From Dipteris shenzhenensis (Eukaryota), in the NCBI GenBank assembly GCA_047967505.1, contig CM106538.1: DNA of 64,000 bases; one strand, 5' to 3'. Of the stretch, positions 2,960 through 64,000 are shown one piece after another. Position 1 is the first letter of the stretch, and each line of letters opens with the position of its first letter. The notes under the pieces were generated by a model. It searched no databases. It saw only the letters and a list, made by a program, of their open reading frames with translations, and was not told the DNA's origin. The translations under genes and the position numbers were made by a program.

Positions 2960-3006
<47 letters not shown>

Positions 3007-3256: not shown

Positions 3257-3322
<66 letters not shown>

Positions 3323-3470
3323 TTCTCTCTCCTCCTGTCGCTCTTCCCTTACCTTCTTTCCTTCCTTGAGGCTTCCCCCTCTCTTTTCCTCTCTTTCCCT
3401 CTCCATTCCATGTCTCTCCCCCTTCCCTTCCCTTTTCCTTCTTTCCCTCTCTTTTGCCCTCCATCAAGAT
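2340..3470. repeat. C/T-rich low-complexity tract with (CT)n microsatellites and internally repeated units
   Basis: Several (CT)n runs; recurring GAGAGCTACCCTACCCTCC at about 3009 and 3195. Confidence 0.9.
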
Positions 3471-3982
3471 GCATCATTTGAAGATGTGTGCTTCACTCAA
3501 TGCAAACACATCTTAAAGACCTTTGTAACTATTGCAATGTGTTTATAAAGTTCTTTGAGATTATACCGATGCTACTTTCTGAAACTTTGAAAGGTGTTTA
3601 TCGGCACCATTATTAAATCTTGGCAATCTTGGAGTTCCAAAACTCTAAAAGGTGTTTATTAACACCGTTCTTACATCTTGTAGATTTTAGAAAGCTCTAA
3701 TGGTAAATTAATCTCATGTGCATGGACCTTAACTATAATAATATAAATAAATAAATATTATATATACATATATAATATTTTCATGGTTTTTTGTATATTT
3801 CAATCATTAATAAGTTAAGAAAAAATTAGTTCTGAAAAGAGAATTGAATTTCTTTAAAATAAATATTTATACTAGAATTTTTGCAATATAGAGTAAGGTA
3901 TGAATTATGTTTCCTAGTTTTGCATTATTAGTCCAAAACAATAGTGTGAGTAATGGCTGCCATATCAACCATAACTTGCTGC

Positions 3983-25735: not shown

Positions 25736-26369
25736 GACTAGCGTCTTAAGTAGCGAGTAAACATACACAAGTATGTGTAGAAAAATAAACTACTTCAAAC
25801 GTTCACCAACGTAACACTCAAGGGCAAGGAGAGTAATTTTTTTTTTTCATTTCTAGCCAAACATATCTATACCAAGCATCAACCTTGGGTTACTACCTTA
25901 AGAAATTTTCTTTATTTCTTAAATAGAAGCCACATGATAAACAATCAGGCTAGGTAGTGGACATGACTACATAGAGCTTGCAATTTTGATCATTTCACCT
26001 TTTTGCAGAAGAGCAAACCGAGCTTTCTATAAAGAGTTAGGGCTCGGGAAGAGTTTAGGGTTTAACCCTAAACCTAAACTCATTTCCTATAAAAACCCAC
26101 TCCACCCCCTCATTCTTCATCTTTCACATTGTGCCTCCATCCTCCTCTTCATTCCAAGCCCTACGCAAGACACTCCTCCCTCTCCATCGACCACCACCTT
26201 ACTCCCATCCTCACATTGTAAGTGACTTCAAGCCCATCTCGCAGTGATAACCTAGCCATCCACCCACCGTCCATTGTTCTTCAACAATCCCGTAACATCG
26301 ACAAAGACTTGGAGAGTGTTCAGGTGACCACCTCTTCCTCCCTTTGGATTTCTATCCGTCAAGGTTTTT

Positions 26370-27036
26370 TCTTCTCTCTTTTTTCCCCCCCCTCCCATTT
26401 CCACCACCCCCCTCCCATTTCCACCACCTCCCCCCTCCAGCTCCCCCTTCCCCCCTCCATCTCCACCACCCCCTCCCCCCCTCCATCTCCTCCCCCCCTC
26501 CATCTCCACCACCCCCTCCCCCTTCCCCCTTTCCCCCCTCCATCTCCATCTCCCCCTCCCCCTTCCCCCTTTCCCCCCTCTAGCTCCCCCTCCATCTCCA
26601 TCTCCCCCTCCCCCCCTCCATCTCCACCACCCCCTCCCCCCCTCCATCTCCACCTCCCCCTCCCCCTTCCCCCTTTCCCCCCTCCATCTCCCCCTCCATC
26701 TCCATCTCCCCCTCCCCCTTCCCCCTTTCCCCCCTCCATCTCCCCCTCCCCCCCTCCCCCCTCCATCTCCACCACCAACCCCCTCCCCCCCTTCCATCTC
26801 TACCTCCCCCTCCCCCTTCCCCCTTTCCCCCCTCCATCTCCCCCTCCTCCCCTCCCCCCTCCATCTCCACCACCCCCTCCCCCTCCACCACCCCCCTCCA
26901 CCACCACCCCCTCCCCTTTTCCCTCTTTCTCTCTCTTTCCCTCCTCCTCTCTCTCTCTCTCTATTTCTCTCTCCCTCCCTCTCTCTTTCCCTCCCCCTCT
27001 CTCTTTCTTTCTCTCTCTTTCGCTCTGTATCCCCCT

Positions 27037-27100
<64 letters not shown>

Positions 27101-27150
27101 TTCCCTCCCCATCTCTCTTTCTTTCTCTCTCTCACTCTCTCTCTTTTCCT

Positions 27151-27211
<61 letters not shown>

Positions 27212-27250
27212 ACTCACTCACTCACACTCTCTCTCTCTCTACCCCCCCTC
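26370..27250. repeat. C-rich low-complexity minisatellite and (CT)n tracts in the gypsy leader
   Basis: Repeated CCCCCTTCCCCCTTTCCCCCCTCCATCTCC units. Confidence 0.9.
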
Positions 27251-27719
27251 GCCGACTGCTCCCTACCATCTACCCTCACCCTAAGCAAGGGCCCTTAAGG
27301 CCCTTGCTATTGTTAGCGGTTGCACTTGTAGTGCCCGCCTGCATGCAGCATCGGCCAAAGGGCAGTGCAACGCTTGCCCCACCAGTGGCGGTGTCGCTCG
27401 CCCTCGCCATCTGATCGCCCCGTACGCTCGCCACCTTGCCTCCTCCCCCTAACCTCCCTCACCACCCTCCCTTCCCCCTATCGAACGCTGCCGTGATGAC
27501 ATCTCCCTCGCCCCTACACCCCTCTTCCCCCGCCCCCTCGCCCCTCCCCTCCCTTGCACTCCCCCTCCGTCCCCGTCCCCTAGCCCCTCCCGTCCCCTGC
27601 ACCCCCCCGTCGCCACCTGACGAGCGAAACTCCCCCCTTTTCCCCCCCTGCATGAAAAATCCCCCCCGACCACTGCCGCTTCATCTTCCCCCCTCACATA
27701 GTATTTAAAAATTAAAAAA

Positions 27720-32617: not shown

Positions 32618-35600
32618 AACTTGTCACAACACTAGCAACAGAATCTACATCGAGACATTGCCCGAGCTCAAGCAGAATGGGATAAGAAAGACAAGTACGC
32701 CTATCATCTGATTAAACAGAATGTGCAAGATGTCATGCTAGGACAACTCAACACAGTCAAGACATCAAAAGAAGCATGGGATATGTTTGTAGCTCTCTAC
32801 GAGTCCAAGAACACATCCAAGATTCTCACCCTGAGAAACCAGATCAACTAGAGTTTTCACAACAGCAGTGAGACCGGTCATGCTTATGTACTCTGCATAA
32901 AAGACTACAACAATAAACTTGTAGTAGCAGGAGAGACTATGAACGCCACAGAAATGGTTCAAGTGATCCTGAATGGACTAGGAGAGGGATACGAGAATCT
33001 AGTCCAGAGTATTGCCATCCAATGGCAAATTTCGACACTGGAAGTACTTTAGTCAATCCTACTTGGTGAAGAACTTAGGACTCAGGCAATTCAAGCACAT
33101 AAAGGTCATTCTAATGATCAGGCATTCACAGCTTCAGACAAAAGTAGAGGCAAAGGCAAAGGCAGAGGTAGAACGTATCAGAAAAGTGGTCATCATCAGT
33201 AACAAAATCAAAGTCAGCATCAACATCAGCATCAGCATCATCCTCAGCAACATCAGAATCAGCAAACAGGAAATCATTCCAACCGAGGAAGATTCCAAGG
33301 ACGAGGGAATGCATCCACCAATGTGTCAAACATTCACTGCAACTACTGTCACAAGTTTGGACACTATGAAAGAGATTGCTACAAGAAGCAATACGACCAA
33401 GGCGGTCAATCCAGCAGCAATCGAGGGAATTCTCGAGGCAGAGGAAATCATCATGGTGGACATTTTAGTCACAGTCATTTTGCAAATGAACATGGGAATA
33501 TGTTTCTTGCAAGCGAGAAATTGCAACAGACTGATACACTGTACCTAGACATTGATTTCAATCCCAAAGAGTATTACAGCTATCAAGTCGACCAAGTGGA
33601 ACAGGATCCTTGGTACATCAACAGCAGTGCATCATCTCACATGACAAATCATCAGGAATGGTTCACAGAGATGAAACCATTAGAAGGATAGAAAAATGTC
33701 ATCTACACAGCAGACAATACACCGAATCCAATTCAAGGGACGAGTGTTATCCCTATGAACAACTTCATTGGTACAAAAGGATTAGTGAAATATGTGCTCT
33801 ATGTTTCAAAGCTCAGTAACTTTTTCAGTAGGTCAAATGACAGAAGACAATTACAAAGTCATCTTCGATGGTGATGAATGCACTATCAGAGACAAATCCA
33901 AAAGATGTCAGCTAGTAGCAAAAGGTCTCAAGGAAGGACCCTAATACATAATGCTAGCTACAGTACCAGATAAGCATGCCATGTCAGCTCAACTGCAACA
34001 GATGCCACTATCTGCAAAATGGCACAAGAGATATGGTCATGTCAATTTCAAGTACTTGTTAGATCTTAGGAATCAGAATATGGCAATTGGGATTCCGAAG
34101 CTACAGTTTCTTGGGAAAGTTTGCGAAGCATGCTGCTTCGGCAAACAAAAGTGAACCAACTTTGTTAGAAGTACCTCTCATGCATGAGGTATTCGTGATT
34201 TGATACATACAGATGTATGGGGTTATGCCCAGACCTGCAGCATCAATGGTTCACTTTACTACTTGACTTTCATCGATGACTACAGCAGATATTGTTGGGT
34301 CTACTTTTTGAAAGAGAAATTTGAAGTGTTTTCCAGATTTCAAGAATTCAAAGCCATGGTAGAAAAATAGATAGGCAAAAAGATCAAGGTCACGAGATCA
34401 GATAGAGGAGGTGAATACATGTCTTCATCATTCATGAACTTTTGCAGAAATCATGGCATTCGAAGACAATTCAAATGTGTAGATACTCCTCAGCAGAATG
34501 CAAGAGCTGAAAGGAAGAATGGCACTTTAGCAGACAGTGCTAGAGCAATGCTTGGTGAAAAGCATCTTTTGAATCAGTATTAGGCAGAAGCAATAGCTAT
34601 AGCAAACTATTTACTTAATCGGCTTCCTACTGAACCGATACAGGGTATGACTCCTTATGAAGCATTCACTGGACAAAAGCCACACATTGGGCATCTCCGC
34701 ATATTTGGTTGCATAGCATATGCTCACATACATGATGATCATCGCAGGAAATTAGATGCAAAGTCACGCAAATGCATCATGGTTGGCTACAGTGAAGAAA
34801 GCAAAGCATACAAATTGTATGATCCCATCAACCGCAAAGTCATTATCTCTAAAGATGTAATCTTTGATGAGGAATTAGAATGGAAAACCTCACCTAAATA
34901 GGAGATAGAAGCTTCGACTTCACAATCATCTACAAAACAGGTTGATGATGAAGAGCAAGAATTGCCAACAACACACCAAGCAGACTCGCAGTAGCTCAGA
35001 CGGTCTACTAGGGAAAGCAGACCTCCAGCCAGATTGACATATGCTCAGAAAGGCAAAGCAATTCAGGTGGAAACCACCAACTATGCTCTTATGACTACCA
35101 TCATGGCTATAGAAGAGCCAGTGTACTTCGAAGATGCAGTACACAAGCTAGAATAGCAAACTGCTATGAATGAAGAAATGGATGCTTTGTATAAGAATAA
35201 TACTTGGGAATTATGTGACCTTCCACCAGGAAAGAAGGCCATAGCAAACAAATGGGTATACAAAGTGAAGTACAATCCAGATGGAAGTATTCAAAGATAC
35301 GAAGCCAGACTAGTTGCAAAAGGATTTGCACAACAATATGGTCGAGACTATGATGAGACTAATGCTCTAGTAGCAAAGATGGATTCCATATGGTTCTTGA
35401 TATCACTAGCAACACTCAACAAATGGAATGTGTATCAGCTCGACGTCAAGAATGCATTTCTCAATGGTTATCTAGACAAGGAAGTCTACATGCAACAACC
35501 AGTAGGTTATGTTGAATCAAGAAAGGAGAATAAGGTTTGCCATCTTAAGAAAAGTCTCTATGGCTTAAAACAAGCCCCCAAACATTGTACAGTAGAATCG

Positions 35601-38024
35601 ACAAATATTTTGCTGATCTGGGATACATGAAGTCCAATGTAGATCATACTCTCTGCTCCAAAGTTCAAGAGGAAGACATTACTATTGCACTTTTGTACGT
35701 AGATGATCTGATTGTGACAGAAAGCAAGGATAGCTTCATCAAAAAATTGAAACAAGAATTATCTGCAAAGTTCGACATGAAAGATCTTGGACTTATGCAC
35801 TATTGTCTTGGAATTGAGTTCTGGAGAGATTCAGATAGCACATTCATGAGTCAGCTCAAGTATGTTGATAGTCTCCTAAAAGGGTTTGTATATATTCTAT
35901 TTTTTGAACTATATCTAGTGTACTTTAGTCATTTGTGGTGTGCTCTCTAGCTGTGCCCTCTCTCCTCATCTCCACTCTTCTCCTCTCCCCTCTTCATATT
36001 TTGTCATACTAGCCAGAGGATGTGCATTTGGAAAGCAGACCTCCAGCCAGATTGACATATGCTAAGAAAGGCAAAGCAATTCAGGTGGAAACCACCAACT
36101 ATGCTCTTATGACTACCATCATGGCTACAGAAGAGCCAGTGTACTTCGAAGATGTAGTAGACAAGCCAAAATGGCAAACTGCTATGAATGAAGAAATGGA
36201 TGCTTTGTATAAAAATAACACTTGGGAATTATGCGACCTTCCACCAGGAAAGAAGGCCATAACCAACAAATGGGTATACAAAGTGAAGTACAATCCAAAT
36301 GGAAGTATTCAGAGATATAAAGCCTGATTAGTTGCAAAAGGATTTGCACAACAATATGGTCAAGACTATGATGAGACTTATGCTCCAGTAGCAAAGATGG
36401 ATTCCATATGGTTGTTGATATCAGTAGTGACACTCAGCAAATGGAATGTGTATCAGCTCGATGTCAAGAATGCATTTCTCAATGGTTATCTAGATGAGGA
36501 AGTCTACATGCAACAACCAGCAGGTTATGTTGAACCAGGAAAGGAGAATAAGGTTTGCCATCTCAAGAAAAGTCTCTACGGCTTAAAACAAGCACCCAGA
36601 AGTTGGTACAGCAGAATTGACAAGTATTTTCCTGATCTGGGATACAAGAAATCCAATGCAGATCATACTCTCTACTACAAAGTTCAAGGGGAAGACATTA
36701 CTATTGCACTTTTGTACGTAGATGATCTGATTGTGATAGGAAGCAAGGATAGCTTCATCAAAAAATTGAAACAAGACTTATTTGTAGAGTTCGACATGAA
36801 AGATCTTGGACTTATGCACTATTGTCTTGGAATTGAGTTCTGGAGAGATTCAGATAGCACATTCATGAGTCAGCTCAAGTATCTTGACAGTCTCCTGAAG
36901 AAGTTTCATATGGGAGATTGCAAGATTGCAGCCACTCCCATGGAACAAAGTTTGAAACTTACTAAAGATTCAGAAAATCCTACAGTCAATGATAGATACT
37001 ACAGGCAGCTCATCGGATCTCTTATATATCTAACAATCACATGGCTAGATATTTGTTATGCAGTAAGCTCACTAGCATAGTTTATGGCAAATCCAAAATA
37101 GTCTCACTGGAATGCAGCCAAAAGAGTCTTGAGATACATCAGAGGTACAAGACAGTTTGGGATAGAATACAGAGGAAGTCATCCACCGTTGCATGGATAC
37201 TATGACAGTGACTATGTTGGAGATCATGAGACCAAGAGATCGACACAGGGATATGCATTTTTCCTTGGTCAAGGTGCTATATCATGGTTGTCAAACAAAC
37301 AACCAACTGTTTCTTTGTCTTTGACTAAAGAAGAATATAGAGCACTCACTACAGGTGCATGTGAGGCTATACGACTCAGAAGACTATTGTCAAGAACGGA
37401 TTACTTTGATGAGTCAAGGCCAACAACAATATACTGTGATAATCAATTGGCTCAAACATTGGCCAAAAATCTAGTATTTCACTCCAGGACAAAGCACATT
37501 GATGTTAGAGAGCACTTCATCAGAGAAAGAGTGTTACTTGGTGACATCACACTGCAGCATTGTGATAGCAAAGAGAATGTTGCAGACATCTTTACCAAAC
37601 CACTCGGTAAAGACCTATTCGAGAAACACCAACTAGGACGCAGAGGAAGGACATTCCCATTAAAGGGGTGTGATGGAATGTAATGCTCAGTCCTTCTTCG
37701 ATTCCCCAAAATTATCATCTTGAGGGAAGGCCTACTTCATGATGTTGATCTTGAGGGAAGGTGTTGAGAGTTCACGCTCAACATCATGTGATCATGTGTG
37801 CATAGCACCATCACGTGATCATATGTGCATAGCACTAACATTATAGAGTGCTATAAAGGAAAGGGTTTGATTCCCTAACCCTAACCCTAACCCTAAAAGG
37901 GTTTGTATATATTCTATTTTTTGAACTAAATCTAGTGTACAGTTAGTCATTTGTGGTGTGCTCTCTAGTTGTGCCCTCTCTCCTCATCTCCACTCTTCTC
38001 CTCTCCCCTCTTCATATTTTGTCA
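32618..38024 (+). mobile_element. Copia family B, 5'-truncated, with internal tandem duplication; 3' LTR 37762-38024
   Basis: gag, CNYCHKFGHYERDC, WYINSSASSHMT, IN, RT twice, RH; partial LTR 35881-36006. Confidence 0.92.
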
Positions 38025-38292
38025 TACTAGCCAAAGGATGTGCATTTGAATGTCTATACTTTGCTTTGCATATGTGCAAATCCTAGATTTTGAGATATTA
38101 TGTGTTGTGTCTCTTTTGCAATTATCCCAAAATATGCTTCGTTGATGATATCATCGACCGAGCACGCACTCCGTCGTTGATACATCGATGGAGCGATTGA
38201 CACAAGCAAAAACCCCCAAAATTTTATTGTATTTTTTGCATCGATAATATCATTTACACTCATTAGGTCAATGATGTCCTCGACCAAGGACT

Positions 38293-49943: not shown

Positions 49944-52900
49944 TGTTGAGAGTTCACGCTCAACATCATGTGATCATGTGTGCATAGCACCATCACGTGA
50001 TCATGTGTGCATAGCACCATCACGTGATCATATGTGCATAGCACTAACCTTATACAGTGCTATAAAGGAAAGGGTTAGATTCCCTAACCCTAACCCTAAA
50101 AGGGTTTGTATATATTCTATTTTTTTAACTAAATCTAGTGTACAGATAGTCATTTGTGGTGTGCTCTCTAGCTGTGCCCTCTCTCCTCATCTCCACTCTT
50201 CTCCTCTCCCCTCTTCATATTTTGTCATGGTATCAAAGCTCCCTTGCCTTTCGTTGAGGCATTGGGATCCTTGAAAGAGTGAGAGAGATCAAAAGATTGA
50301 GAGAGTTCTTCTTGAGTGATTTTCACTTTCATTGAGTGATAGAGAAAATCATGTTCATTTGAAAGATATTTCCGTCCATGTGAGGTTGAAAGGTTTCCTT
50401 CTTTGAGAGAGAGAGATCTAGTTTGTGAGAGGATTCATTGAGAGAGCTCTTGAAAAGTTTCATGAGAGACCTATGCTGAGAGATTTCTGCTATGAGAGAG
50501 ACTTTACTTTGAGAGAGTCTGTGAGAGAGAGACAGAGTCACTTTGTAGGTCCTATCCTGCACTTCAACCACACCCTTCACTTGAACTGTATTGGTGGCGA
50601 ACTACTTTAAGGGGAGCCTTGCCGTCGATGGGCTGCAGCAGCGACACCTACAAGTGAGATTAGCATCTTCAACAACTACCTCTGAGGCTCTGCAAGCTTC
50701 AGCAGCACCCTTGTACCAAGGCCTTGTGCCATCAATGGCCAGCTCCAAACTCCAAAACGTACGCACGCTTCTCCAACAGGCTGCCGACAAACGTCCACAC
50801 TCCTCTCCAGTCGCTTTTACAAAGCCATCTAGCAGCCCAAACTAAGGGCTGTCAACACTCCTAAGTACTATACATCGCCTCCTACACCTTCAACGAAAGC
50901 CCACACTATCCCTCTCCACAGATGCTAGCCTCTCCATATCTGGGCTACAAGCCAATGCCAATAGTCCTCAACGAGCTACATTATCCAAATCCAAAGATAG
51001 CAACAGCTTCTCTTGCGTTGGTAACTCCCAGCACCAGCAAGCAGCCTCAACTTCACAGAGCTCCTTCGCGTAGACGCAACTCCTCCAAAGGCTCTAGTGA
51101 GCCTCTTGCAATCCAACTGCGCCCAACAACTAACCTCTCCAACGAATAGCTAAGACGGAGCCTTGACCAAGCGACTATTCCTCAACGCCTCTGCCAACGA
51201 GCTCAAGGCATCGTTTCCAAGCCTCTCCAACAGAGCCTCTACACCAACTCTCCAAGAAGCGCTACTAGCAACTACATCAACCAAAGATGAGCTCACAGGC
51301 GACCTGCAACAAGCAGAGACTCTCGAAAGCTTCAACGACTCTGATGCTTCAAACTCCAAAGCAATGCCAAGCTTCTGCTCATAGTCTAGCTCCTCGACTC
51401 AACAAAACTAAATGAAGTCTAGTAGTAAGATGGGCTCCCAGTGGCAGCGTCAACATCCGTCTTCAACGAAGCCCACTGCTTTCTTCGACTCGATTGACGG
51501 AATCATCAAGATTTTGAAGTATCCGGAATCTTCTTAGATTCTGGTGCCTCACCTCGTGACACATGGCATCATGGTGGCCCTCCTTATCTCCAACCCAAGG
51601 TTGGTTCTCACACTGTCACGTGGCATGCATCTAACCACACCCATGCTTGGTCAGCCTTATGCCATGTGTAGATAAGAGTTAACCTCGGTTCATGTTAACC
51701 CCTGGTTAGGTCACCAGAGTAAGGTTTGGCCAAAAATCTACCACGTGGCACCCTTATCTCCTTATCTACCATGTCATCGCCCTCGTTTAGCATGCCACAT
51801 CATCACATTATCCTGACACGTGGCAACTGGCTGCCACATCATCAACTCATCTGATCTACCATGTCACCCTACCAGCTCAACTGCCACATCACTTGTGCCA
51901 CATCATCAACCATGTTAGCACTAACACGTCATCAACCACGTCATCAGTGACACATCATCTAGGTCACATCATCAGTGTCACATCATCAGTGCCACGTCAA
52001 TAGTGCCATGTCATCTGGCCATGTCATCAGGCCACATCATCACTGCCACATTACCTCTGCCACCTCAGCACTGCCACCTCAGTAGTGCCACCTCAGCACT
52101 GCCACCTCAACTATCCAATCAGCATTAACCTCTGCAGGCACAGTCCCTTTCCAGGCACACTGTGCACACACTGTATGTGCACACTCCTGCCACCTCAACA
52201 TAGAGCTTCACAGGCACACCTCTTGCTAAGCACATTGCCACATCATCACTACATGTGACTCACAGTGACACATCATCATTGAGCACCATTTGCACTCCTT
52301 TTGCCCCTCCACCTAGATCAAGTCATATTTCTTGATCCAGGAAGAATTTGAGGGCACTCCAAAAAGGAAAGTCACTCGTTTTTTCATGCTCTACGCGCTC
52401 GTTACATCATGTGCACATTTAAGTGCAAGTTACACTCACATTTAAGCCTCGTCAACCAAACCACTTCCTTCACGCACATTTGCCTCTACATCAACGCATC
52501 TGACCCAGCACTTAAAAAGAACAAAAGAAAAGGAATTATTTGCTATTCTTTCATCGATCGATGGTTGGTTTAGATCTAGATCAGAGTAGGCTAGATCGCC
52601 ATAGAGGGGACGCTTTGAATTTCCCAAGTTGCCAATCTAAGCCATGCCCGAAATTCCCGACTAGTACTTACTCGGATCCGATTTCACATCATTACATTAC
52701 CTGAAACCTAACGTTCATCAGTTCAGTGAGTAGACTTCAGAGTTAAGAGGCATTGCAGATTGATTCAGTGGGCAGATAGCATTTGATTTCACACACACAT
52801 GCCACCATTGTAAAGCCTATTCGGCTATCTCACGGCATCGTGCACATCATTTTCAGCCTTGGAAAGCCTCTTGGCTATTCTCGGCATCATTGCCACGAGC

Positions 52901-54236
52901 CTTGTAACACATATCATATTTTATATAGTGCAGTTCTATCTTCACCGACGGTATAGAGATTTCACTTGGCATATTCAGAGTATTTGTAGTTGATTCATAT
53001 AGAGATCTTCACGACATTTTTTGAGTACATTTCTTGCAAATGAACATGGAAATATGTTTCTTGCAAGCGAGGAATTGCATCAGACTGATACAATGCACCT
53101 AGACATTGATTTCAATCCCAAATAGGATTACAGTTATCAAGTTGACCAAATGGAATAGGATCCTTGGTACATCTATAGCGGTGCATCATCTCATATGACA
53201 AATCATCAGGAATGGTTCATAGAAATGAAACCATTAGAAGGTCAGAAGAATGTCATCTACACAGCACACAATACACCGAATCCAGTTCAAGGGACAGGTG
53301 TTATCCCTATGAACAATTTCACTGGTACAAAAGGATTAGTCAAAGATGTGCTTTATGTTCTGAAGCTCAGTAAGAACCTTTTCTCAGTAGGTCAAATGAT
53401 GGAACACAATTACAAAGTCATCTTCGACGGTGATGAATGCACTATTAGAGACAAATCTAAAAGATGTCAGCTAGTAGCAAAAGGTGTCAAGGAAGGATGC
53501 TTATACAGGATGCTAGCTACAGTACCAGATAAGCATGCCATGTCAGCTCAAATGCAATAGATGCCACTATCTGTAAAATGGCACAAGAGACATGGTCTTG
53601 TCAACTTCAAGTACTTGTTAGATCTAAGGAATCGGCAATTGGGATTCCGAAGCTACAGTTTCTTGGAAAGGTTTGCGAAGCATGCTGTTTCGACAAACAA
53701 AAGCAAACCAACTTTGTTAGAAGTACCTCTCGTGCACGAGGTATTCTTGATTTGATATATACAGATGTATGGGGTTATGCCCAGACCCCGCAGCATCAAT
53801 GGTTCACTTTACTACTTGGCCTTCATCGACGACTATAGAAGATATTGTTGGGTCTACTTTCTAAAAGAGAAATCTGAAGTGTTTTCCAGATTTCAAGAAT
53901 TCAAAGCCATGGTAGAAAACTAGATAGGCAGAAAGATTAAGGTCATGAGATCAGACAGAGGAGGTGAATACATGTCTTCAGCATTCATGAACTTTTGCAA
54001 AAATCACGGCATACGAAGACAATTCACATATGCAAATACTCCTCAGTAGAATGCAATAGCTAAAAGGAAGAATGGGACTTTAGCAGACACTGCTAGAGCA
54101 ATGCTTAGTGAAAATCATCTTCTGAATCAGTATTAGGCAGAAGCAATAGCTACAGCTAACTATTTGCTTAATCGGCTTCCTACCAAACAGATACAAGGTA
54201 TGACTCCTTATGAAGCATTCACTGGACACAAGCCAC
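49944..54236 (+). mobile_element. Copia family B 5' portion (LTR 49944-50227, PBS, ~2.8 kb leader, gag deleted, PR-IN), 3'-truncated
   Basis: TGTTGAGAG..TTTGTCA then TGGTATCAAAGC; 53030-54236 homologous to 33480-34680. Confidence 0.92.
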
Positions 54237-54555
54237 GCATGTCATTTGGGACCCACTCCTTCATTATACAATTAGTATACAATGTGTTGTTATCCACATT
54301 CTCCTTCGTGCCCTTTGGCTCATACCATACCGCTGTAAATGTTGTAGCTCTCCCTTGGTCATCTCTTTGCACATCAACTACTTTTGCAACCCAAAACTTC
54401 ACATTCTCATATTCATCATCCGATGGCCGAACCACAACAAAACAATCGACCTCTATATCTACTTGTGGCATAAACTCTCTCTTCTTCGGTCCACAATATG
54501 GACGTGGGAGTATGATGTATTGAATATTGACCTTCTCCCGTTTCTCCTTTGATTG
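54237..54555 (-). pseudogene. BAH-like beta-strand domain fragment
   Basis: RPYCGPKKREFMPQVDIEVDCFVVVRPSDDEYENVKFWVAKVVDV..TAVWYEP resembles the BAH pattern (xFVxVxP..xxVAxI..vxWY). Confidence 0.45.
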
Positions 54556-54639
54556 ACAAATGTGTTAGATATAAGGAATATTATCAGGCTTGCTCATTAT
54601 GGCAGTGAACCAATACATAGCAATCATAATCAATATATG

Positions 54640-55660
54640 TATTTTAAAGAAGTGATTTTGGAGTGGGAGGAGATTACTACTAAGTACATAAAAGAGTTCT
54701 TGGAGGCAAACCCAGTATTTAGTTTGACTAGTTCAAGTGATTTTGTGGTCTCTCAACATAGAAATAAAAGTGGAGATACTCGTGAGCGAGACAAGGAACA
54801 ATCAATAAAATTTCAAGAGCAAGAACTTCAAACAGGATGAACTGCTTTGGATTTTTGTAAATGGGCGCTCATTAATAGAATAAAGCGGCCAATTTCTTTG
54901 AGTGATATGCAAGCTTGTTTGTATGCTCAAAAATCGGGTTACATTCGTCCATATATCACTGGAGCGTCTACAAAGACGTACATAACAAGTGTACAAGATC
55001 CACTTAGATTAAACATACGATAAATTTTTGAGAATATTAATTTCTTATATTAATTGCTTATTTATGATGTGTCATTTTGTAAATTCCTTTATTTCTCAAT
55101 TTTGTCCAACATTTCAATAACTATCGATCCTTTTCTTTTATGTGCAGGGTTTGATGACTTGTTGGAAGAAGTGAAGAATGGATTGATTCTTGAATTTGAC
55201 CCTAAGGTGAATGGCTTATGGGAACACAATCTCCTGATATTAATTGATTCCATATTTGAGTTCAAAGTTCTTCAATTTGAAGTGAAGAGATCATCGATTT
55301 CAAGAGCAGGATATGGCTTGTTTATGCATGCAGCTGTAGTCTAATAAAACAAAGACATTTTGTGTACAATGGTCCAAAGTATGGTTACGATAGTTGGCTT
55401 ACTCTTTGTACTCAATTTCAAAGGTTTAAGATCTATGGCCTCCTTGAAGATCCAAAAGTTACACCAAAAGAGGATAGGCAATGCATCGTGGGAGACGTGT
55501 TGTATTGGAATGTAGCTGGATACATCAATAGCTCTATCAATTGTAAGGATAGCATGAATGCTATATATGTATATGATCTTAATGTACCACCTCAATGGAT
55601 TAAAGACAAATGAGACTCTAATGTTTTGGATATAGTAACAAGTATTGATATGTTAAATGT
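54640..55660 (+). pseudogene. Decayed SET-domain protein gene
   Basis: After acceptor TGTGCAG (55147): FEVKRSSISRAGYGLF, VYNG, NVAGYINSS..MNA, which are SET motifs in order; stops and frameshift near 55345-55360. Confidence 0.7.
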
Positions 55661-56326
55661 ATGGACATAAAGTGTCTTTGTTTTGGTTGGCTGAGTTTTG
55701 AGCTTTGAAAATTACATATAGTTGTTAAAGTTCCTTGAATTTGCATGAAAATGCCCAAAACAAAAGTGGGAAATGTATATTGCTAGTGCAGTTCAAAATG
55801 CTAGAAATAAAACACTTGAATCTTGACATTTAAAATTTTGTATTTTCCAAGATTTCTCTACCAAGCACCCCCTTTTGACTTGAAACTTAATCCAATCAAT
55901 GGAAAGGATGCTATTGTTCAACTCAGCCCATATGCATCAGTAGATGAATTACTACTGTCATTTGATGGATGGACGTTGTAAATAACTTGTGTGTGTGTTA
56001 ATAGCCAACAATTGTAACTAGATGTAATGTTTGGTAATGGAAAACATTTGAATTTTAGACGTATTTTACATTTTGTATTTTCCATAAGCTAGATGACCTA
56101 TAAATTGCTTTTTGGTGTGGTAATAATCCAACATTTGTAGCTAGATGTAACGTTTTGTAATGGAAAAACATTTGAATGTTTTGACATTTTATAATTTGTC
56201 TTTGACATGAGTTGAAGGACCTACAAATCACTTTTGAGTAGTCCAAACCCATCCTCTAAAAACAAAACAATGTGCTATTTGAGATAGTTTCCCACATGGT
56301 TGAAACCCATCACTCACACATAGAAA

Positions 56327-56746
56327 CTAGTTGATGTGACATCCCCATTGAGTTCACTAGCACTCGATGATGGGTGCAGACCATAGTATACACTTGTACA
56401 TTTGCACATATTCCCTGGCACAAAGATGTGCATCCCTAGCACTCTAACAAGCTCAAACAATAATATGCACTTACACATTTGCACACATATTCACACCTCA
56501 CATGAGCATCTATTATACAAGGATCTTCGTATTGAATTTCTGTGAGACTAGTTAATGTGACATCCCCATTGAGTTCACTAGCACTCGATGATGGGTGGAG
56601 ACCATAGTATACACTCACGCGCACAAAGATGTGCATCCCTAGCACCTCTAGCAACAAGACAATAATATACACTTACACATTTGCACACATATTCACACCT
56701 CACACGAGCATCTATTATACAAGACCTTCATATTGAATTTCCGTGA
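56327..56746 (+). repeat. ~220-bp tandem duplication
   Basis: CTAGTT(G/A)ATGTGACATCCCCATTGAGTTCACTAGCACTCG at 56327 and 56548. Confidence 0.88.
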
Positions 56747-57292
56747 ACATTCAAGGTGCTAAATAGACTTGTCATAACAAAGGCTAGCACTAAAGGAGAA
56801 CCCTAATAAAAAGCCAACCATGTTCTCTTCATCCAAGCTAGAACTATCTATGAAGTCAAGAGTTTTTCATTTTAGCCTCTTCCAAACGAGCATTTTTAAG
56901 CAAAAGACACAATAGCTAAGTGGACAACACACCACCATAATTAGAAAAAAATATTATGTACGCCCCCCACAACTTGGGCGAAAACATCACCGTTGAAATT
57001 TGCATTAGCTAATATAGGACAAACATATATCGAATGCCATCCCAAGCTCACCTCCAAAAGCAAAACAAGTACTATAATTTTCACCTCATAATCGTCACCA
57101 CCAATTGAAAATAATAAACTTCATCAACATAGCAGGGCTTCGCTACGTGACATCATCAATGATTGTTAACGATGGCTGTAAGACCATGACCTGAACATAT
57201 GCTCACACATTTACACATCCACACACCTACACACATGGCATCAATTTATACAAAGTTCTTCATACTAAGTTTTGTCAACACTCCAAAGGTTA

Positions 57293-57294
<2 letters not shown>

Positions 57295-57357
<63 letters not shown>
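57295..57357. repeat. (TG)n(AG)n compound microsatellite
   Basis: Direct reading. Confidence 0.95.
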
Positions 57358-57358
<1 letters not shown>

Positions 57359-57520
57359 GACATGAATAAAATCACATATTATGCATTCACTTATCTAAGA
57401 TGTTCATCCTATGTTTCTATCAACACTCTAGAAGTGTAGGGCAACCTTTACCGTGACAGAGTCCAAAACTAAGAAGCTCCACTTTCAAAGGGGGGGGAGA
57501 GAGAGAAAGAGAGAGAGAGA

Positions 57521-57866
57521 GATGATGATGATGATGATGATATATTAGCGTCCACAAGAGCTATTGAGATATGACCTATGGGACCTAGCAAGAATATTAT
57601 TTAGTCTCCTCTTAAGGAATCAGAGTTCGCATTTTGTGATTTGCCGAAAAGTACACTCTAATGTCGGAATAGATTGGGCATTTGAATGCTTAGTGTTCCT
57701 CATTCTTCAATGTCATGACCTTCACATAAGGTGCATGTCGATCTTCTCTTTCTAGACCACTCCATGCTCTGGTTTCAACGACCAAATCATGGGAGTGGGC
57801 CTGAAGAAGTGTGATAGCTCACCTTGCCTTGGGTGGCATGGGAATGACAATATGTGGTTGGTGGCC

Positions 57867-57868
<2 letters not shown>
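57521..57868 (-). mobile_element. 5'-truncated non-LTR retrotransposon (RTE-X/L2-like C-terminus) with (CAT)n tail
   Basis: AHSHDLVVETRAWSGLEREDR..CTLCE..EEH*AFKCPIYSDIR (CCHC motif, frameshifted); (GAT)7 at 57521-57541. Confidence 0.75.
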
Positions 57869-57920
<52 letters not shown>

Positions 57921-58169
57921 TTACTACAATAGACCTATACCTCTATGAGAGCAGAACAATTTTCAAACTCCATATGCTTCAATATAAATTTAGCTAGTTC
58001 CATTGCAAAGTTCCAAGAGCCTTTTCCATTTACAACTACATTTATATAGCCTCCCAGCTCGCAAATCTTTAGAAGTCTGTTGGAGGTCATTTGCTATCTC
58101 TAGAAGTCCGTTGGAGGTCTTTTCCTAACAACTTATGGACCATGTCCTACCTCCTCAACTGTTCATAGT

Positions 58170-59074
58170 TACACAATTTAAGAGCACACCTCCTAACCTA
58201 TGTGTCCTCAAAGCCCTGGACCATGCACATTTGTTGTGGTATCCTTTCAAAGGGTACCCAAGAGAATAAAAAATACAACGTAACACTGCCAAAAATGGAA
58301 GGAAACAATCCATATGGAAGTTGGGCTGCTTACCTTTCTTCCAGAAAAGTTGTTAACATCTGATGGTGGACACAGAAACAAACCTTGTAAAAAATTTAAC
58401 CTGCCTCTTCAAAATATCAATTCAGACTTGCAGCAAAATCAATAACAAACACAGTTTGCCACATGAGCTCTTGAATATTTTTTCCATTAATGATACTCAA
58501 CTCTGACCAGAATAAACCACGGCTTAAAATATACAACCTGAAGCATGTTCTGAAATTTTGTACCACGGATCACTAGATGGCCTAAAAATCAGACAATTGC
58601 ACTAAAGAAGAAGCTAGGCGAAACTGGAAATGCAACCACTGATAACCCCAGCTTACAAATATATTTTAAGCCAAGGTTTAAAGAAGGCAATGACTGGTCT
58701 CTCTGCTTTGAATTTTTGGAACTGAGAGTGAGATAAAGGGTGATGTGATGTTCCCCATGCTGATATTCAAGCAACTAATCAAGAACTGCCACCTTCATAT
58801 CTCAACCCATAGTATCTACTTAACCGTTGTATGGTATTATCCTTAATGCAGCTCAGTATCTCCTCCAATTTTCTGAGATTCTCCTTCACTTTTTCTTCTT
58901 GTTCTTTTGCTAGTTTTTCCTCTGCCTTCCTCAGTTCCTGGGCAAATTACAACAATCTATCACCATCTGAGATCAGCTACTAGCAAATGCTCCAAAATAG
59001 ATTAAGCTACCTGTAATGATTGAAAAGTACCACAGCTTGTGCATGCCGATGCACCACTTCAACGTATGCTTTAA
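58170..59074 (-). pseudogene. Multi-exon gene fragment, unknown product (coiled-coil-like)
   Basis: GT-AG exons 59011-59074, 58825-58937, 58657-58721, 58538-58581 and 58334-58359; the last four splice in frame to ELRKAEEKLAKEQEEKVKENLRKLEEIL..LKYICHLVIRGTKFQNMLQMLTTFLEE. Confidence 0.6.
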
Positions 59075-59780
59075 CTAGATGCACACAGACATTACTAACA
59101 AATAATCCAAAACAAGAGCACACACTAAGAAGCCCAACCGCTATCTATCTTCTCACATAATAACAAGTTCTTCCAAACAGATAACTGGGTAGACACGTCC
59201 AGACACATGGTATAGATCTGGACGAGTCAAGACCTCTGAGTTGGAGTAGCTCCTGCGAATGCTCCCAGCCCCCCCCCCCCCCCCCCCGGCTCCCGTCTAC
59301 CTCCCTCGCGCCGCGCAGCCCCCTCCCCCCTTCCCTTCCTTCCCCTCCTCCGCCTCGCGCCGCGCTGCCGCCACCCTCCCTCCTCCCCTCCTTCCTTCTC
59401 CGCCTCCGCCTCACGCCGCACTGCCACACCCCCGCCCTCCCTTCCTCCCCCTTCCCCACCTTTGCGCCGCGCTGCCCCCCCCCCCCTCCTTCCTCCCTTC
59501 CTTCCTTCTCCGCCTCCGCCTCACGCCGCGCTGCCACACCCCCGCCTCTCCTCCTTCCCCTTCCCCGCCTTCGCGCCGCGCTGCCACCCCCTCCCTTCCC
59601 TCCCTCCTCCCTTCCTTCGCCTTTTCTCTCTCCCTGCTGCCGTCTCTCCTCCTCCCGCTTCCTCCTACGCCTCCCTCCCTCCTCCTTTCCTTCCCCTCCT
59701 TCGCCTCCATTCCTCCCTCCCTCGCCTTTGCCGTTTCTTTTCCCCCGTCTTTTGGAGCTTTCGCAGTTTGTCAGTGTGGT

Positions 59781-60700
59781 ATGGCGGCCATAAGCCCGGA
59801 ACCGGTGGCCCAGACAAACCCCCTCCCTCCTTCAGCCTACCACGTAACACTGACAGAACATCAGGTCTCCTTGGTGAAGTAGGCTGCCAATGACTTTTCC
59901 CAGACTTCCGTATATGGAAGTGTCATTGGCTACGCCCCTTCACGAGCAGACATCAGGGACTGGCTGCAGTCCACCCTATACCTTGAGGACAGCCACATTG
60001 AGGAGGTCGCACTCATGGGACGTGGCATCTTCTGGCTCAAGCTCTCCTCGGCGCAGGCTACGAGCGATATGGTCAGACGGTCAACTACCTCTGTGGGTGG
60101 GAAGATGCTTATGGTCCCGTGGTATAGGGGTTTCAGTGTAGCGGACTTCGATGCCCGCTTCCGCATCCCCCGCCATCCAGTTACCCTCATCTTCCCAGGG
60201 CTCGCAACAGAGCTTCGCCCGATCATCAAGGACTTGGGGGCACAATTTGGCTGGCTCATGCAGGACACCTTCGTTGATGTGGTGGCAGCCCAAGGGGTTC
60301 CACGCGTCAAAGTGGCAGTCCTAGATCCGCAGAGTATTCCCTTGGAGTTCGAGATTGAGATGGAGTGGTGACGCAGGTGTGGTGACGCAGCGCATTATGG
60401 TCACTGGTCGCCCAGATCAGTGTCTGAGATGCCACGGCTTCGGGCACCAGGCGTGCTCTTGCCCTCGCTTCACGAGGACAGAACCTCCGATGGCCCCCAA
60501 CCAGGCAACTCAGGATCCCCCCCGTCAGGCGTCGACAACCCCTCCACAAGGGGAAGGTTGGACTGAGGTCAAAAGGAAAAGGAAAGGAAACAAAACAATA
60601 ACCAAAAAGCCTCCTCTCCAGTAGGAGACCCTTGAGGTCACCAGTCAGCAGCAGCCCGGTAAGGGGAAGGAGAAGGTCAGCCAACCTCATCCTCATCTTT
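59781..60700 (+). pseudogene. L1-type LINE ORF1 (DUF4283-like plus zinc knuckle), frameshifted; C-rich 5' region from about 59250
   Basis: MGRGIFWLKL..MVPWYRGF..PVTLIFPGL..; CLRCHGFGHQACSC. Confidence 0.8.
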
Positions 60701-61361
60701 CACCCCATCCCACTCCTCCTCCCCCCTCCTCCTCGGTTCCCCTACCTCCCCCCCTTCCGGGACCCCCCGGCATCTTTGGTTTCAGGCCCCCCCCTCTCCC
60801 TCGAGCATGAGCCTGCGGGGACCCCCCCTTCCTCCTGCGGCCCTGGAGCTAGCACAGACCTCCTCCGCGCCTATCCCCCCTGGACAAGTGGAGGGTTGGC
60901 ACAAGGAATCTTGCCACCTCATCCTATTTTTCCCATTATTTAACTTGCATCCTTGGACTATCTATACCCCCCCCCCCCCCCACATGGGCCTATCTTACAT
61001 GGAGCGAATAATCTAATATAATATCCATCTCCACCTATTTTATATTACTTCTCTCATGGACTTTAGGCCATATCTCACTAAATGCACGCATGGGACCGCC
61101 TAGGTGGAGAGGTGGCACATGGAGGAACCATGCCACCTTACATTTTATAATATTACTACCATGGATTATGTACAACACACCTTATGGGTCCTCTTACGTG
61201 GAAGGGTGGCACATGGTCATGCCCTGCCACCTCAACCCTGGGCCCTATGCACATCATATTTTATTATACTATTGCCACACATACAAACACACACACATAT
61301 TTATGCCTTTTTCCTTGGACAAATTTATCCATAACAATGTATGTATGTACATGTGCGATGT

Positions 61362-61393
<32 letters not shown>

Positions 61394-61397
<4 letters not shown>

Positions 61398-63830
61398 CAC
61401 GAACATAGAAGAAACTGACAAGAAAGCTTTAAGATAATGTTGCTCTTGATATTAAGCAGGAAATGCGCTACCCGTGGGCTCTGAGCGCAAAGGAGACGAA
61501 GAGTACAGTGTAATGTGCAAGCACACAGGTTATGTCTTCCAACGGTGCTCTACATCTCCTTCCTATGGAGCAGGGAAGGGGACATCATATGGTGGGCTTC
61601 GAGTGGAGCTGACAGAGAAATGAGTTACATTTTGTATAATCCAGAGCAAGAAAAGATAGCGCGCACACGCGAGAGAGAGAGAGAGCGGGGGGGGACAGGG
61701 GGACGGAGATAGGAAGTAGGAGGAGGTCATAAATTAGATAAGGAGTGTCACATCAAAACGTACCTACACAATGAGGCAATAGGACATTATATAGTCCCCC
61801 CACAACATCTCCTTTTTAGCCCTGTCAGCTCTCCTTTTTGCCCCTAGGGCTACCCCTCACAACTAGGCCTTTTTTCCCTTTTATTATGGCATCCCTTCCC
61901 CTACAATTTTGCCCGCAAAATTTCATGCTGCGGCTGTCATACGAGGGTGCCAGAACAGCAATTGTTGCTACTGAACGTAGCAAAAGGTGGGGATGCTCCT
62001 GCACAACGCCTTCTAGCTGCCATGAATGTATACCTTGTTACAAAGTATTCTATGTCTAAAGCCCACAATGTGCTTGGGGGTTGTAGAGGATATGGCCTTC
62101 CTCATCCATAGGCAGCAACTCTGAGAGAATATGTGCGTTCTGGCCCACATGGTTTTGGCAATGATACATGGAACACATTATGGATCTCGGAGGAGGGTGG
62201 TAGTTCCAATTGATAAGCTACTTCTCTAACCCTACGGGCCATAGCTAGTTTACTGTGGGTGTACTCCTCAGAGAGAGGTATCGATTTTGGTGGAGATGGT
62301 ATCGATTTTGGTGGAGATGGTGGAGATGGGTGTACCCCTCGGAGAGAGGTATCGATTTTGGTGTACCCCTCGGAGAGAGGTATCGATTTTGGTAGATGCA
62401 CAAAATCCCGTTTTGAAAACCAGGTACCTCCTATGTTCGTTCGCATAGTTTTCCACTTGGCTTGGGCTTCTTAGCCGATTGCAAAAGAGCCTCCCTTTCC
62501 AAGTCATGTCGTGTCTGAAATTGTGGAAAGCATTCTTACTTTGCATCCCTACATTGCTTCGAATGTGTTCATCCAATAGATAAATGCTTGAATTATAAAC
62601 AACTCTTGCCAAAGTGACTCTTAAATTTTGCACCTGGCAATCTGAGACGCTGAATACCATGTCTTGGTAGGGATGAGCCTATCAACCACAACATAGATGC
62701 TGTCCCATCCTCTGTCTGGGATGAAGTCCATAGCTGTGTGTGCACATTTTCCTTCTGGAATGGGCAATGGCTGCAACAACCCAGCTGGAAGTTTGCTGTC
62801 AACCTTATTGTTGGCATGGCAAGCACTCGGTAACATATTGCACCACACCTTTCCAACGACCCTCCCAAAACAAACTCTGTTTTATCCTTTTACAAGTCTT
62901 TGTGATGCTCGTATGTCCTACCATAGGGGATGAATGCATTTCCCTCAAACACCAACATTCTATAGTGCGATTTGGAAACAAAATCCTGAAACCATAACAA
63001 GTAATTGTTCAATTTAAATTCAGGATGATCATCACGTGGGGGTCCAGAATATTGTTTTTGGCCTCAAATTCTGCATCTACTCATCTTGAATGCCATCTAT
63101 CAAGTCCTGGTAAAGAGTGATGACAACAGACAATGTGAGGCATCTACAAACACAATTTCTTTTCATTTCTTATATTCAATGTCAAAGTCGTATGAGTGCA
63201 CTGAAGCCAATCACCTCTATTGCTTGGCTAAATGGGCTAAGAAAGAAAATATTTAAGTGTCATGTGATTAATCTTGACTTTGATCCCTGCTGCCATATAG
63301 TAAAGATGTCACTTTTGAAAGCATGTAGAATTGCCAACATCTCTTGGTCATAAACATGGTAAGTCAGCTCTTTGTCATTATACTTTCTGCTTTCAAAAGT
63401 TCACACCCCATGCTTTTGCCTTCAAACAGTCTCCAATCCTGTGTCACTGGCATTTGCCTCCAGAATAAACAACCATGAAAATCAGGGCATACCAACACAA
63501 GGGCATGAGTCAAATCGAATTCCAGAAAACCAGCCTCTGTGCCTCCATTGACAGGGGCTGTCCGTTTGGCAAACTGATGTATTGAATGCCTGGAAAAGGA
63601 GGCAACTCAGCTCGTAGTTGTGGCCATTCCCTTACACATTTCAACTTTGAATGGGTCCACTTGAATCCCACTCCTCCCCACAATGCGCCCAAGGTATTCA
63701 ACCTCTTCTGCCGCCTTGGCGAAGAGCTGATGCAGCTTCAAAATTTCGAGCACTTCCCTAACATGTTCAATGTGCTCCAATCTGCTTTTTTTTTAAATGA
63801 GGATGTCATTAAAAAAACCAGCGTGCAACA
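61394..63830 (-). mobile_element. Decayed Ty3/gypsy pol (RT-RH-IN) with candidate PPT (61808-61817) and LTR (about 61394-61807)
   Basis: FFNDILI, HVREVLEILK, EYLG (RT); GLLQPLPIPE..AMDFI and VAYQLELPPSSEIHNVFHVS (IN); LTR limits tentative. Confidence 0.8.
62258..62395. repeat. Minisatellite (GGTATCGATTTTGGT / GTGTACCCCTCGGAGAGA) inside gypsy integrase
   Basis: Four copies of GGTATCGATTTTGGT. Confidence 0.85.
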
Positions 63831-64000
63831 GAATAGAATTGGCTGCAATATCTTGTTCATCAGTGCCTAAACGTAGCCAGTGCAAGTCTGGGAGTCTAGA
63901 CCCAAGATCCAGGTCTAGGATCCCAAAGTCAGAAGTGTTGGTGTCACAGTTATGCTGAAACGTGTTTCCCACCATTTTCCCCCCAAAATGCCGTTTCAAA

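Follow-up and report, generated by a model that had tools for sequence, protein, structure and literature searches.

The NIF-like and SET-like sequences at ~54513-55600 of the window (the whole 64,000-nucleotide stretch of DNA analyzed here) are best explained, with a probability that we put at roughly 70%, as a dead fragment of a cassette pairing a NIF-like gene with a SET-domain gene, the SET part belonging to a family which in several lineages appears to be encoded by CACTA/EnSpm transposons and which would act on chromatin. The locus would be the remnant, cut off at both ends and lying among transposable element (TE) debris, of a two-ORF cassette in which a NIF-like ORF comes first and a small SET ORF follows ~130-400 nt on, on the same strand; the genome is probably that of a seed-free vascular plant. 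The first-pass annotation had described this region as a decayed SET-domain gene in a transposon-like context, and had proposed a TE-borne or horizontally acquired lysine methyltransferase rather than a standard plant SDG.

Structure and decay of the window copy

The features of the unit and of its left flank are as follows, with the evidence for each in parentheses.

53034..54240, plus strand: truncated Ty1-copia fragment (Pol beta-barrel, integrase region), outside the unit (PF22936, E 1e-22)
54242..54512, minus strand: fragment of another repeat, holding an open frame of 108 aa, outside the unit (variant contigs of runs X1 and X2)
54513..55023, plus strand: C-terminal tail of a NIF-like (FCP1/SCP-type phosphatase-like) ORF, 5'-truncated (tblastn, NIF-family HMM)
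54550..54552, plus strand: in-frame TGA in the NIF-like tail (sequence; relatives read through)
54838..54840, plus strand: second in-frame TGA in the NIF-like tail (between the two HMM-matched pieces)
55024..55147, plus strand: AT-rich spacer closing on a pyrimidine tract and a phase-1 acceptor, AG 55146-55147 (sequence; fern-type contig L002)
55148..55338, plus strand: SET exon, N-terminal part, with the GxG motif (hmmsearch; tblastn with Adiantum proteins, 47% identity)
55339..55355, plus strand: frameshift zone (gap between HMM positions 76 and 82; reading frames)
55356..55598, plus strand: SET middle part, ending at PPQW (hmmsearch; 55% identity to relative P0015; conservation list)

The window is plant-like DNA, rich in repeats and full of Ty1-copia and Ty3-gypsy remains. 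The copia fragment to the left of the unit is 90.7% identical to a copy at 33480-34687, the match stopping abruptly at 54240 and not resuming downstream. Of the public runs found to share sequence with the region, none is an RNA run and two are of DNA type (X1 and X2), with small shares. Within 54241-55700 these two cover the interval 54242-54512 and, in X2, a further 36 nt (55016-55051), and their contigs occur in several variants that part from the window sequence at 54242 and at 54510-54512; from these contigs we infer that the left edge of the unit lies at ~54513. The SET part has no cover in X1 or X2, an observation with no bearing on expression or copy number. A minus-strand ORF at 54241-54564, considered either to belong to the unit or to encode a BAH-like domain, was rejected since the same contigs show a separate repeat piece there; it has no Pfam match, its Atlas recognition was below threshold, and it resembles none of the collected proteins. 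The unit is truncated at both ends, and its abrupt start at ~54513, adjoining a piece of an unrelated repeat and a copia fragment that is itself truncated, marks it as a dead fragment of ~1.1 kb.

The first half of the fragment resembles the end of a NIF-like ORF found on a metagenome contig (L002) that also carries an intact SET ORF. Residues 180-342 of that ORF (3569-4606) align to 54529-54999 with 27% identity (tblastn, E 2e-12), and the NIF-family HMM matches 54553-54837 (positions 198-289, E 4e-17) and 54841-55020 (positions 302-353, E 1e-7), while HMM positions 1-197, the phosphatase domain, find nothing anywhere in the window. The tail terminates at TAA 55021-55023, equivalent to the end of the relatives' ORFs. 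A reading of 54640-55020 (54529-55020) as a SET exon was discarded, this stretch being the tail of a separate NIF-like ORF that ends at its own stop.

The spacer that follows closes on a phase-1 acceptor, which is kept ahead of the SET exon in L002 (AG 5015-5016); the first residue of the Adiantum modules varies between D and N, pointing to the same phase. The conserved acceptor implies that the SET exon is normally spliced to an upstream exon which is missing in the window, where neither a matching donor nor an upstream exon for AG 55146-55147 was identified. A possible splice from a GT donor at 54989, which would link the upstream ORF with the SET exon in phase 1, was dropped: L002 does not conserve this donor, and the NIF ORF there continues to its own stop. 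The intron proposed at first pass therefore survives in its acceptor, conserved in L002, and not in its upstream exon, which is absent from the window.

The SET sequence itself is read in two frames. In frame 1, positions 55282-55323 encode VKRSSISRAGYGLF, bearing the GxG motif, and frame 0 holds YNG (55365-55373), NVAGYINSS (55509-55535) and NA (55557-55562). AGYGLF (55306-55323) and YNG represent SET motifs I (GxG) and II (YxG), in order, and pair through the family profile with GRGLF and YAG of MLL1. When a family HMM built from 15 intact relatives was searched against all 3455 six-frame pieces of the window, just two of them matched, 55156-55338 (profile positions 16-76, E 2.6e-11) and 55356-55598 (profile positions 82-161, E 1.2e-29; both hmmsearch), and the window SET shares 49-55% identity with intact relatives over 80 residues. 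The Pfam SET model (PF00856, gathering score 22.4 bits) had no match on the window pieces even at E 10; Pfam is blind to the separate pieces, and the case for SET consequently rests on the relatives. This silence is what would be expected if the resemblance were a matter of chance, with no real SET-derived sequence behind it, a reading whose probability we regard as practically nil and which is already refuted by the family HMM, matching at E 1e-29 and 3e-11 and representing proteins that pass PF00856, as well as by the identity to intact relatives.

The copy is heavily damaged. At 55339-55355 it has 17 nt where relatives have 15 nt (five profile positions), a net +2 frameshift, and the incoming frame of the N-terminal part runs into TAA TAA at 55342-55347; a TGA stop (55611-55613) follows the PPQW end of the middle part, and a Trp replaces the nearly invariant Gly that precedes NVAGY. 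For profile positions 162-196, the C-terminal quarter with GEELFxxYxF, no downstream piece of the window scored above noise, and the copy is without motif IV (ELxF/YDY in canonical SET domains), the presumed catalytic Tyr and the knot-forming C-terminal strand, all within a region where intact relatives have GEELFxxYxF. A third SET exon proposed by eye at 55868-55978 (DELLLSF, resembling GEELFxxY) was rejected, since its score of -2.6 bits does not stand out from those of 50 other pieces. Lacking a start and a catalytic C-terminus, interrupted by two stops in the NIF tail and shifted in frame within the SET part, the window copy is non-functional. Its branch in the family tree is long (0.61) and belongs to a fern-type subclade. 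The description given at first pass holds well for this part of the locus: all three SET motifs lie in canonical order at the places given for them, far beyond chance and in agreement with the family HMM; the disabling mutations are borne out by the net +2 frameshift, TAA TAA and the missing C-terminal quarter; and no Cys-rich pre-SET region is visible, pre-SET and post-SET being absent from the window and from every aligned relative.

The SET family and its NIF-like partner

To place the fragment among known proteins, we turn to its relatives. A word-indexed search returned seven proteins of the fern Adiantum nelumboides that are 48-53% identical to the window's 110-aa piece. An intact Adiantum module used in phmmer found 30 proteins at E<=0.001 among 1.84 billion representatives, and a 20-sequence profile found 31 proteins in a collection of 5.8 billion. 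The named matches come from A. nelumboides, the lycophyte Diphasiastrum complanatum and the liverworts Riccia sorocarpa (17 proteins in the profile search) and Calypogeia fissa; the remaining matches, which are the majority, are ENA, Logan or JGI contigs without a name. Many contigs of ~1-5 kb carry stand-alone SET ORFs of about 170-212 aa with their own start and stop.

Judged by sequence, this is a genuine but divergent SET family, and a narrow one. PF00856 matches 19 of the 20 aligned relatives at E<=0.01, with 24.4 bits for P0015 and 25.9-27.4 bits for P0002-P0005 (cut-off 22.4), and four of the seven A. nelumboides proteins pass it. The Pfam check suggested at first pass is in this way answered by the relatives, to which the window is tied through the family HMM, and not by the window pieces themselves. 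Against the PDB, the family profile matches the SET domains of MLL1 (8.6e-7), LegAS4 (2.1e-6), EZH2 and SETD2 in alignments spanning the four motifs, GxG, YxG, GN..(R/G)(F/Y)IN(H/S)S and GEEL..(D/x)Y.F. A profile is needed to see this, a single-sequence phmmer search with the intact module giving E 0.43 and 1.3 only. The SET three-dimensional fold was found as well, and the top Foldseek matches include ATXR5.

In canonical SET domains, motif III reads (R)FINHSCxPN, and its Asn and His contact AdoMet. The signature of the present family is GNVAGYINSS, in which the Asn is kept and a Ser stands in place of the canonical His in 20 of the 20 aligned sequences (S151), with neither the Cys nor the PN that follow. 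Since the His is replaced in every aligned member, catalytic activity is uncertain. The proteins are also minimal: members end 1-3 residues past the SET core, the family alignments contain no conserved Cys cluster, and Pfam detects no pre-SET or post-SET, PHD, SRA, AWS, CXC or reader domain in the proteins scanned.

These features bear on whether the window holds a decayed conventional plant SDG (SUVH, ASH, TRX, ATXR or E(z) class). In its favor, the fold and the motif order are those of SET, MLL1, EZH2 and SETD2 come closest in sequence among PDB entries, and ATXR5 ranks high in Foldseek. Nevertheless, the PDB matches are weak and tied across SET classes (E about 1e-6, 15-24% identity), the family has GYINSS in place of RFINHSC and lacks SDG accessory domains, and neither a conventional SDG nor a seed-plant protein occurs among the named proteins in the 30 phmmer and 31 profile matches, most of which are unnamed. 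We consider an SDG origin highly improbable, and the earlier suggestion that this is not a standard plant SDG is supported, both by the named matches and by the missing SDG flanking domains of the relatives.

The order of NIF-like and SET ORFs is common to the window and L002, a fern-type contig. L002 carries a 346-aa ORF with a NIF domain (PF03031, E 1e-15) and, ~390 nt downstream on the same strand, an intact SET ORF of 192 aa (PF00856, 37.2 bits). A further NIF-like protein, P0111, also matches PF03031 (E 1e-14), and two additional SET/NIF protein pairs sit on equal-sized contigs (15150 and 29897 bp), suggesting that each pair shares one contig. The NIF-like relatives are stand-alone proteins of 350-393 aa that end at their own stop, and none of 80 NIF-type proteins contains a SET domain. 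The L002 ORF and P0111 are thus matched to the NIF/FCP1/SCP-type family through PF03031, whereas the window keeps the family-specific tail without the domain. The nucleophile motif of the NIF family is DxDx(T/V), and 15 of the 15 NIF-like members checked have LDLNG (DxN) instead; with DxN in place of DxD, the protein is more likely a binder of phosphorylated CTD than an active phosphatase. On this basis the NIF-like partner may bind substrates in their phosphorylated form, the polymerase CTD for example, without dephosphorylating them. To our knowledge, no NIF-like gene has been described as linked to a SET ORF.

The rest of L002 is less informative. Its four upstream ORFs have no Pfam match; one of these, a 519-aa ORF upstream of NIF and SET, returned nothing from Pfam even at E 10 and nothing credible from the PDB by phmmer, and gave a weak Atlas lead to methyltransferases. 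The NIF ORF likewise had no PDB match at E 0.01. No CACTA part was demonstrated in the fern-type cassette as seen in the window and in L002, where the other ORFs are without Pfam matches.

Transposon linkage and origin of the family

Evidence for a transposon context comes from ten related loci in a metagenome collection (L001-L010) and from Riccia. In nine of the ten loci, L002 being the exception, SET shares its strand with Transpos_assoc, Transposase_21 or DUF4216. The orders are as follows.

L004, one strand: Transpos_assoc, then SET
L005, one strand: SET, then Transposase_21 (243 bits)
L006-L009 (one sequence, four times), one strand, within 4.8 kb: SET, then Transposase_21 (176 bits), then the DUF4216-like stretch of L003
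L003 and L010, one strand: SET, then DUF4216
L001, one strand: DUF4216, then Transpos_assoc, then SET

With 93-100% nucleotide identity in their overlaps, L003, L004, L005 and L010 form one family, in which the order is Transpos_assoc, SET and Transposase_21, or a deletion leads from SET through to DUF4216. L003 and L010 part from L005 just past SET, and are accordingly read as internal-deletion derivatives that retain SET. The Transpos_assoc matches score 26.7 and 22.3 bits, below the Pfam cut-off of 27.7.

Similarly, three Riccia proteins retrieved with the SET profile (P0060, P0071 and P0080) combine SET with the N-terminal region of a CACTA transposase, 38-43% identical to residues 123-293 of the L005 transposase ORF (E 1e-30 to 4e-10), and P0080 additionally matches, weakly, the first 35 positions of Transposase_21. 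These models splice out of the SET C-terminus and continue into transposase; like those of Adiantum, the Riccia proteins are automatic gene predictions. Five other Riccia proteins (P0068, P0069, P0061, P0070 and P0076) gave no Pfam match to Transpos_assoc, even at E 5. A zinc-finger-like CxCxxC...H motif can be seen in P0068 and P0069 by eye only. In A. nelumboides, the module of the seven named models is 94-100% identical to that of P0005 (where listed) and follows unrelated N-termini (RT, integrase SH3, gag, zinc knuckle). Near-identical modules behind unrelated exons point to a dispersed repeat that was caught by gene predictors. Moreover, the deepest split with support in the family tree (99/95) has CACTA-linked members on either side, which suggests that the association is old.

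The window does not share this context directly. No transposase was found in it by tblastn or by Pfam on the 66 ORFs of 54214-63999. CACTA elements end in 5'-CACTA...TAGTG-3' terminal inverted repeats (TIRs) and are flanked by a 3-bp target site duplication (TSD); neither TIRs nor a TSD were detected in 54000-64000, where the inverted pairs are simple repeats only. The unit is truncated, and the element ends may for that reason be absent. The check for flanking TIRs and transposase thus came back empty in the window, and the proposal of a TE-borne gene is supported for the family, through nine of ten loci and three Riccia proteins, and not for the window locus, which has no transposase, TIRs or TSD and whose neighbors are fragments of unrelated TEs. 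The SET family looks like CACTA transposon cargo that may act on chromatin.

Two other origins have to be weighed against this one. The locus might be a pseudogene of a small host SET gene, possibly long domesticated, and its NIF-like neighbor, kept in seed-free plants, with the TE sequences around family members due to capture or to nearby insertions. The stand-alone SET (about 170-212 aa) and NIF-like (350-393 aa) ORFs could equally well come from host transcripts, L002 and the window agree in NIF-SET order although identity is as low as 27% (NIF) and 46% (SET), as at a conserved locus, and the search of the window found no TE termini. What makes a host gene unlikely in our judgment is the linkage to CACTA, on the same strand and in a consistent order, in three divergent nucleotide families (L001; L003, L004, L005 and L010; L006-L009) and again in Riccia, together with the retention of SET within the same repeat in the deletion derivatives L003 and L010. 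The 17 Riccia paralogues, the near-identical Adiantum modules behind unrelated upstream exons and the abrupt junctions of the window fragment also speak against it.

A SET gene acquired horizontally from a virus or bacterium (chlorovirus vSET-like or Legionella LegAS4-type) and then spread is, we think, very unlikely. Viral and bacterial SET proteins are small and free of accessory domains, as the proteins of this family are, and LegAS4 is among the PDB profile matches (2.1e-6). However, LegAS4 scores no better than eukaryotic SETs, and P0028 and P0029, phmmer matches that do not look like plant proteins, are long repeat proteins matching in many short stretches. Scans of IMG/VR viral contigs and of 185,579 prokaryote genomes, both seeded on one signature motif, gave 24 and 25 pattern matches, none of them confirmed, and revealed no relatives. 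Horizontal acquisition, the other half of the first-pass proposal, finds no backing in these motif-seeded scans. Cargo of CACTA/EnSpm transposons, with the window locus as a dead copy, remains our preferred reading of the family.

Known transposon-borne SET genes and a possible role in silencing

Transposons carrying SET genes have been reported in several other settings. In red algae, Plavaka elements, of the EnSpm/CACTA superfamily, encode PAG2, a protein described as an N6-adenine DNA methylase (PF01555) joined to SET (10.1101/2025.02.11.637652). As far as that description goes, the likeness is considerable, extending to SET cargo in the CACTA superfamily, accessory genes for chromatin or nucleic acids beside it, and the degeneracy of most copies; the weak methyltransferase lead of the 519-aa ORF in L002 may be added. 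Compared at the level of description only, the land-plant loci differ in using Transposase_21, DUF4216 and Transpos_assoc and in the NIF-like partner; no PF01555 match was found at the metagenome loci or in the L002 ORFs. Helitron captures of SET genes are also on record.

Outside the CACTA superfamily, HarbingerS and Phytophthora MuDR elements are reported to encode SET histone methyltransferases (Kojima and Jurka, Repbase Reports 2014, via PMC12730594). Like the elements described here, these are, in that summary, DNA transposons with a SET methyltransferase gene, which has been read as a counter to epigenetic silencing; on the same descriptive level, they belong to other superfamilies and hosts, and SET is placed here between the zinc-finger region and the catalytic core. 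A transposon-encoded anti-silencing protein is further known from VANDAL21, namely VANC (PMC12730594; Bostrychia preprint). In both cases, as these accounts present VANC, a TE-encoded factor is proposed to act on the epigenetic state of its own element, and VANC differs in not being a SET-type enzyme and in coming from MuDR elements of eudicots. SETMAR (Metnase) of anthropoid primates fuses SET to a mariner transposase (PMC8704517). It resembles the Riccia models P0060, P0071 and P0080 in that, going by the published outline, SET and a DDE transposase are joined in one product. With SETMAR, a host gene present in one copy captured a dead transposase, and the SET domain comes with pre-SET and post-SET, in contrast to the multi-copy elements and minimal SET of the present family.

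A precedent for how a second product might be made is offered by En/Spm, where TnpA and TnpD arise from one CACTA transcription unit by alternative splicing and TnpA is a DNA-binding protein without SET. The superfamily is the same, and En/Spm shows how a second product could share the 5' exons of the transposase; the differences are that TnpA has no SET domain and that splicing, in the present family, is seen in gene predictions only. In the literature outside Repbase Reports and preprint supplements, we found neither a SET gene in land-plant CACTA/EnSpm elements nor a NIF-like partner.

A mechanism can be proposed along these lines. In several lineages, SET would be encoded between the N-terminal, Transposase-associated zinc-finger region of a CACTA element and its Transposase_21 core, and an intact element would make a small SET protein, possibly by alternative splicing of the transposase transcription unit. 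The protein would methylate a lysine of histones, or of proteins bound to the element, at the transposon or in its vicinity, and this methylation could tune the chromatin state of the element itself, in either an anti-silencing or a self-limiting direction. In the cassette of the fern type, SET would be partnered by the NIF-like DxN protein. A more ambitious version, which we hold to be speculative and somewhat unlikely, envisages an old land-plant CACTA lineage with its own minimal SET methyltransferase, made from the transposase transcription unit, targeted by the shared N-terminal zinc-finger region and joined in ferns by a catalytically altered NIF-like partner; the two together would change local histone marks and engage the polymerase CTD, and so escape or set the silencing of the element; the window would then be a fossil of this lineage.

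The window locus is functionless, and its value is as a pointer to the family. For genome annotation, the chimeric "SET-domain protein" models (seven in A. nelumboides and 17 in R. sorocarpa) would be better flagged as TE-derived than counted among host SDGs. If a SET domain is indeed built into plant CACTA elements, the system is tractable, with intact members of ~170-210 aa that can be expressed and assayed. We know of no earlier description of a transposon linked to polymerase CTD phosphorylation, a link that the DxN NIF-like partner suggests. Transposon-encoded chromatin enzymes are rare and testify directly to an arms race between elements and host silencing, and this family occurs in liverworts and ferns, lineages that do not have the same TE silencing marks as flowering plants.

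Repeats around the SET/NIF unit

The dead unit formed by the SET fragment and the tail of a separate NIF-like ORF (about 54513-55600) lies among repeats, and the window also holds remains of other transposons and low-complexity arrays:

54242-54512, a 270-nt piece left of the unit, containing a 108-aa open frame (…FWVAKVVDV…WYEP…) on the minus strand
55993-56235, a 123-nt unit present twice (79% matches), directly 3' of the SET fragment
56323-56746, a unit of about 200-220 nt present twice (96-100% in segments), shortly 3' of the SET fragment
33003-38048, 18907-20792 and 49944-50228, several copies or partial copies belonging to a single Ty1-copia family
62105-63008, what is left of a Ty3-gypsy integrase on the minus strand (Integrase_H2C2, E 4e-12; Tf2-1 SH3, E 5e-9)
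2300-3550, 26220-27420 and 59150-59900, long low-complexity arrays, CT/GA-rich and Pro/Ser-coding
59304-59622, a 56/110-nt tandem array, part of these low-complexity arrays

The 270-nt piece is a fragment of a repeat family; several variant contigs carry it at high word depth in the public sequencing runs X1 and X2, with flanks that differ from those in the window, and its 108-aa frame drew no lead from Pfam or Atlas, a resource of protein-cluster leads. The Ty1-copia copy at about 33-38 kb contains an internal duplication (35012-35880 versus 36030-36899, 93% identity), and the low-complexity arrays are open on both strands in several frames.

Related CACTA loci and NIF-like proteins

Among the related metagenome loci, L003, L010 and L005 belong to one CACTA family (93-100% identity). 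The Transposase_21 region is gone from L003 and L010, while a complete SET ORF is kept, adjoining the DUF4216 part; compared with L005, these two are internal-deletion derivatives. The relatives of the NIF-like tail (54513-55023), P0082-P0111, read LDLNG (Asp-x-Asn) in place of the phosphatase nucleophile motif in all 15 proteins checked, which suggests that catalysis is altered or lost throughout the family.

In L002, where the NIF-like ORF precedes the SET ORF, another frame lies 5' of both on the same strand:

L002 321-1877, plus strand, a 519-aa ORF

By eye, its C-terminal part resembles methyltransferase motif I. It had no match in Pfam or PDB, and its methyltransferase leads in Atlas were weak (a trimethylguanosine synthase-type cluster at 0.90; a PF01555 cluster at 0.86, rank 13). 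If a real methyltransferase, it would parallel the N6-methylase plus SET combination of PAG2, an accessory gene of red-algal Plavaka.

Chimeric public gene models

Public gene models of Adiantum nelumboides (P0001-P0007, P0025, P0110) and Riccia sorocarpa (P0057-P0080) join the SET module to retroelement, P450 or transposase exons, and are annotated as "SET domain-containing protein" or as hypothetical. With these chimeras included, the number of host SET genes would be overestimated.
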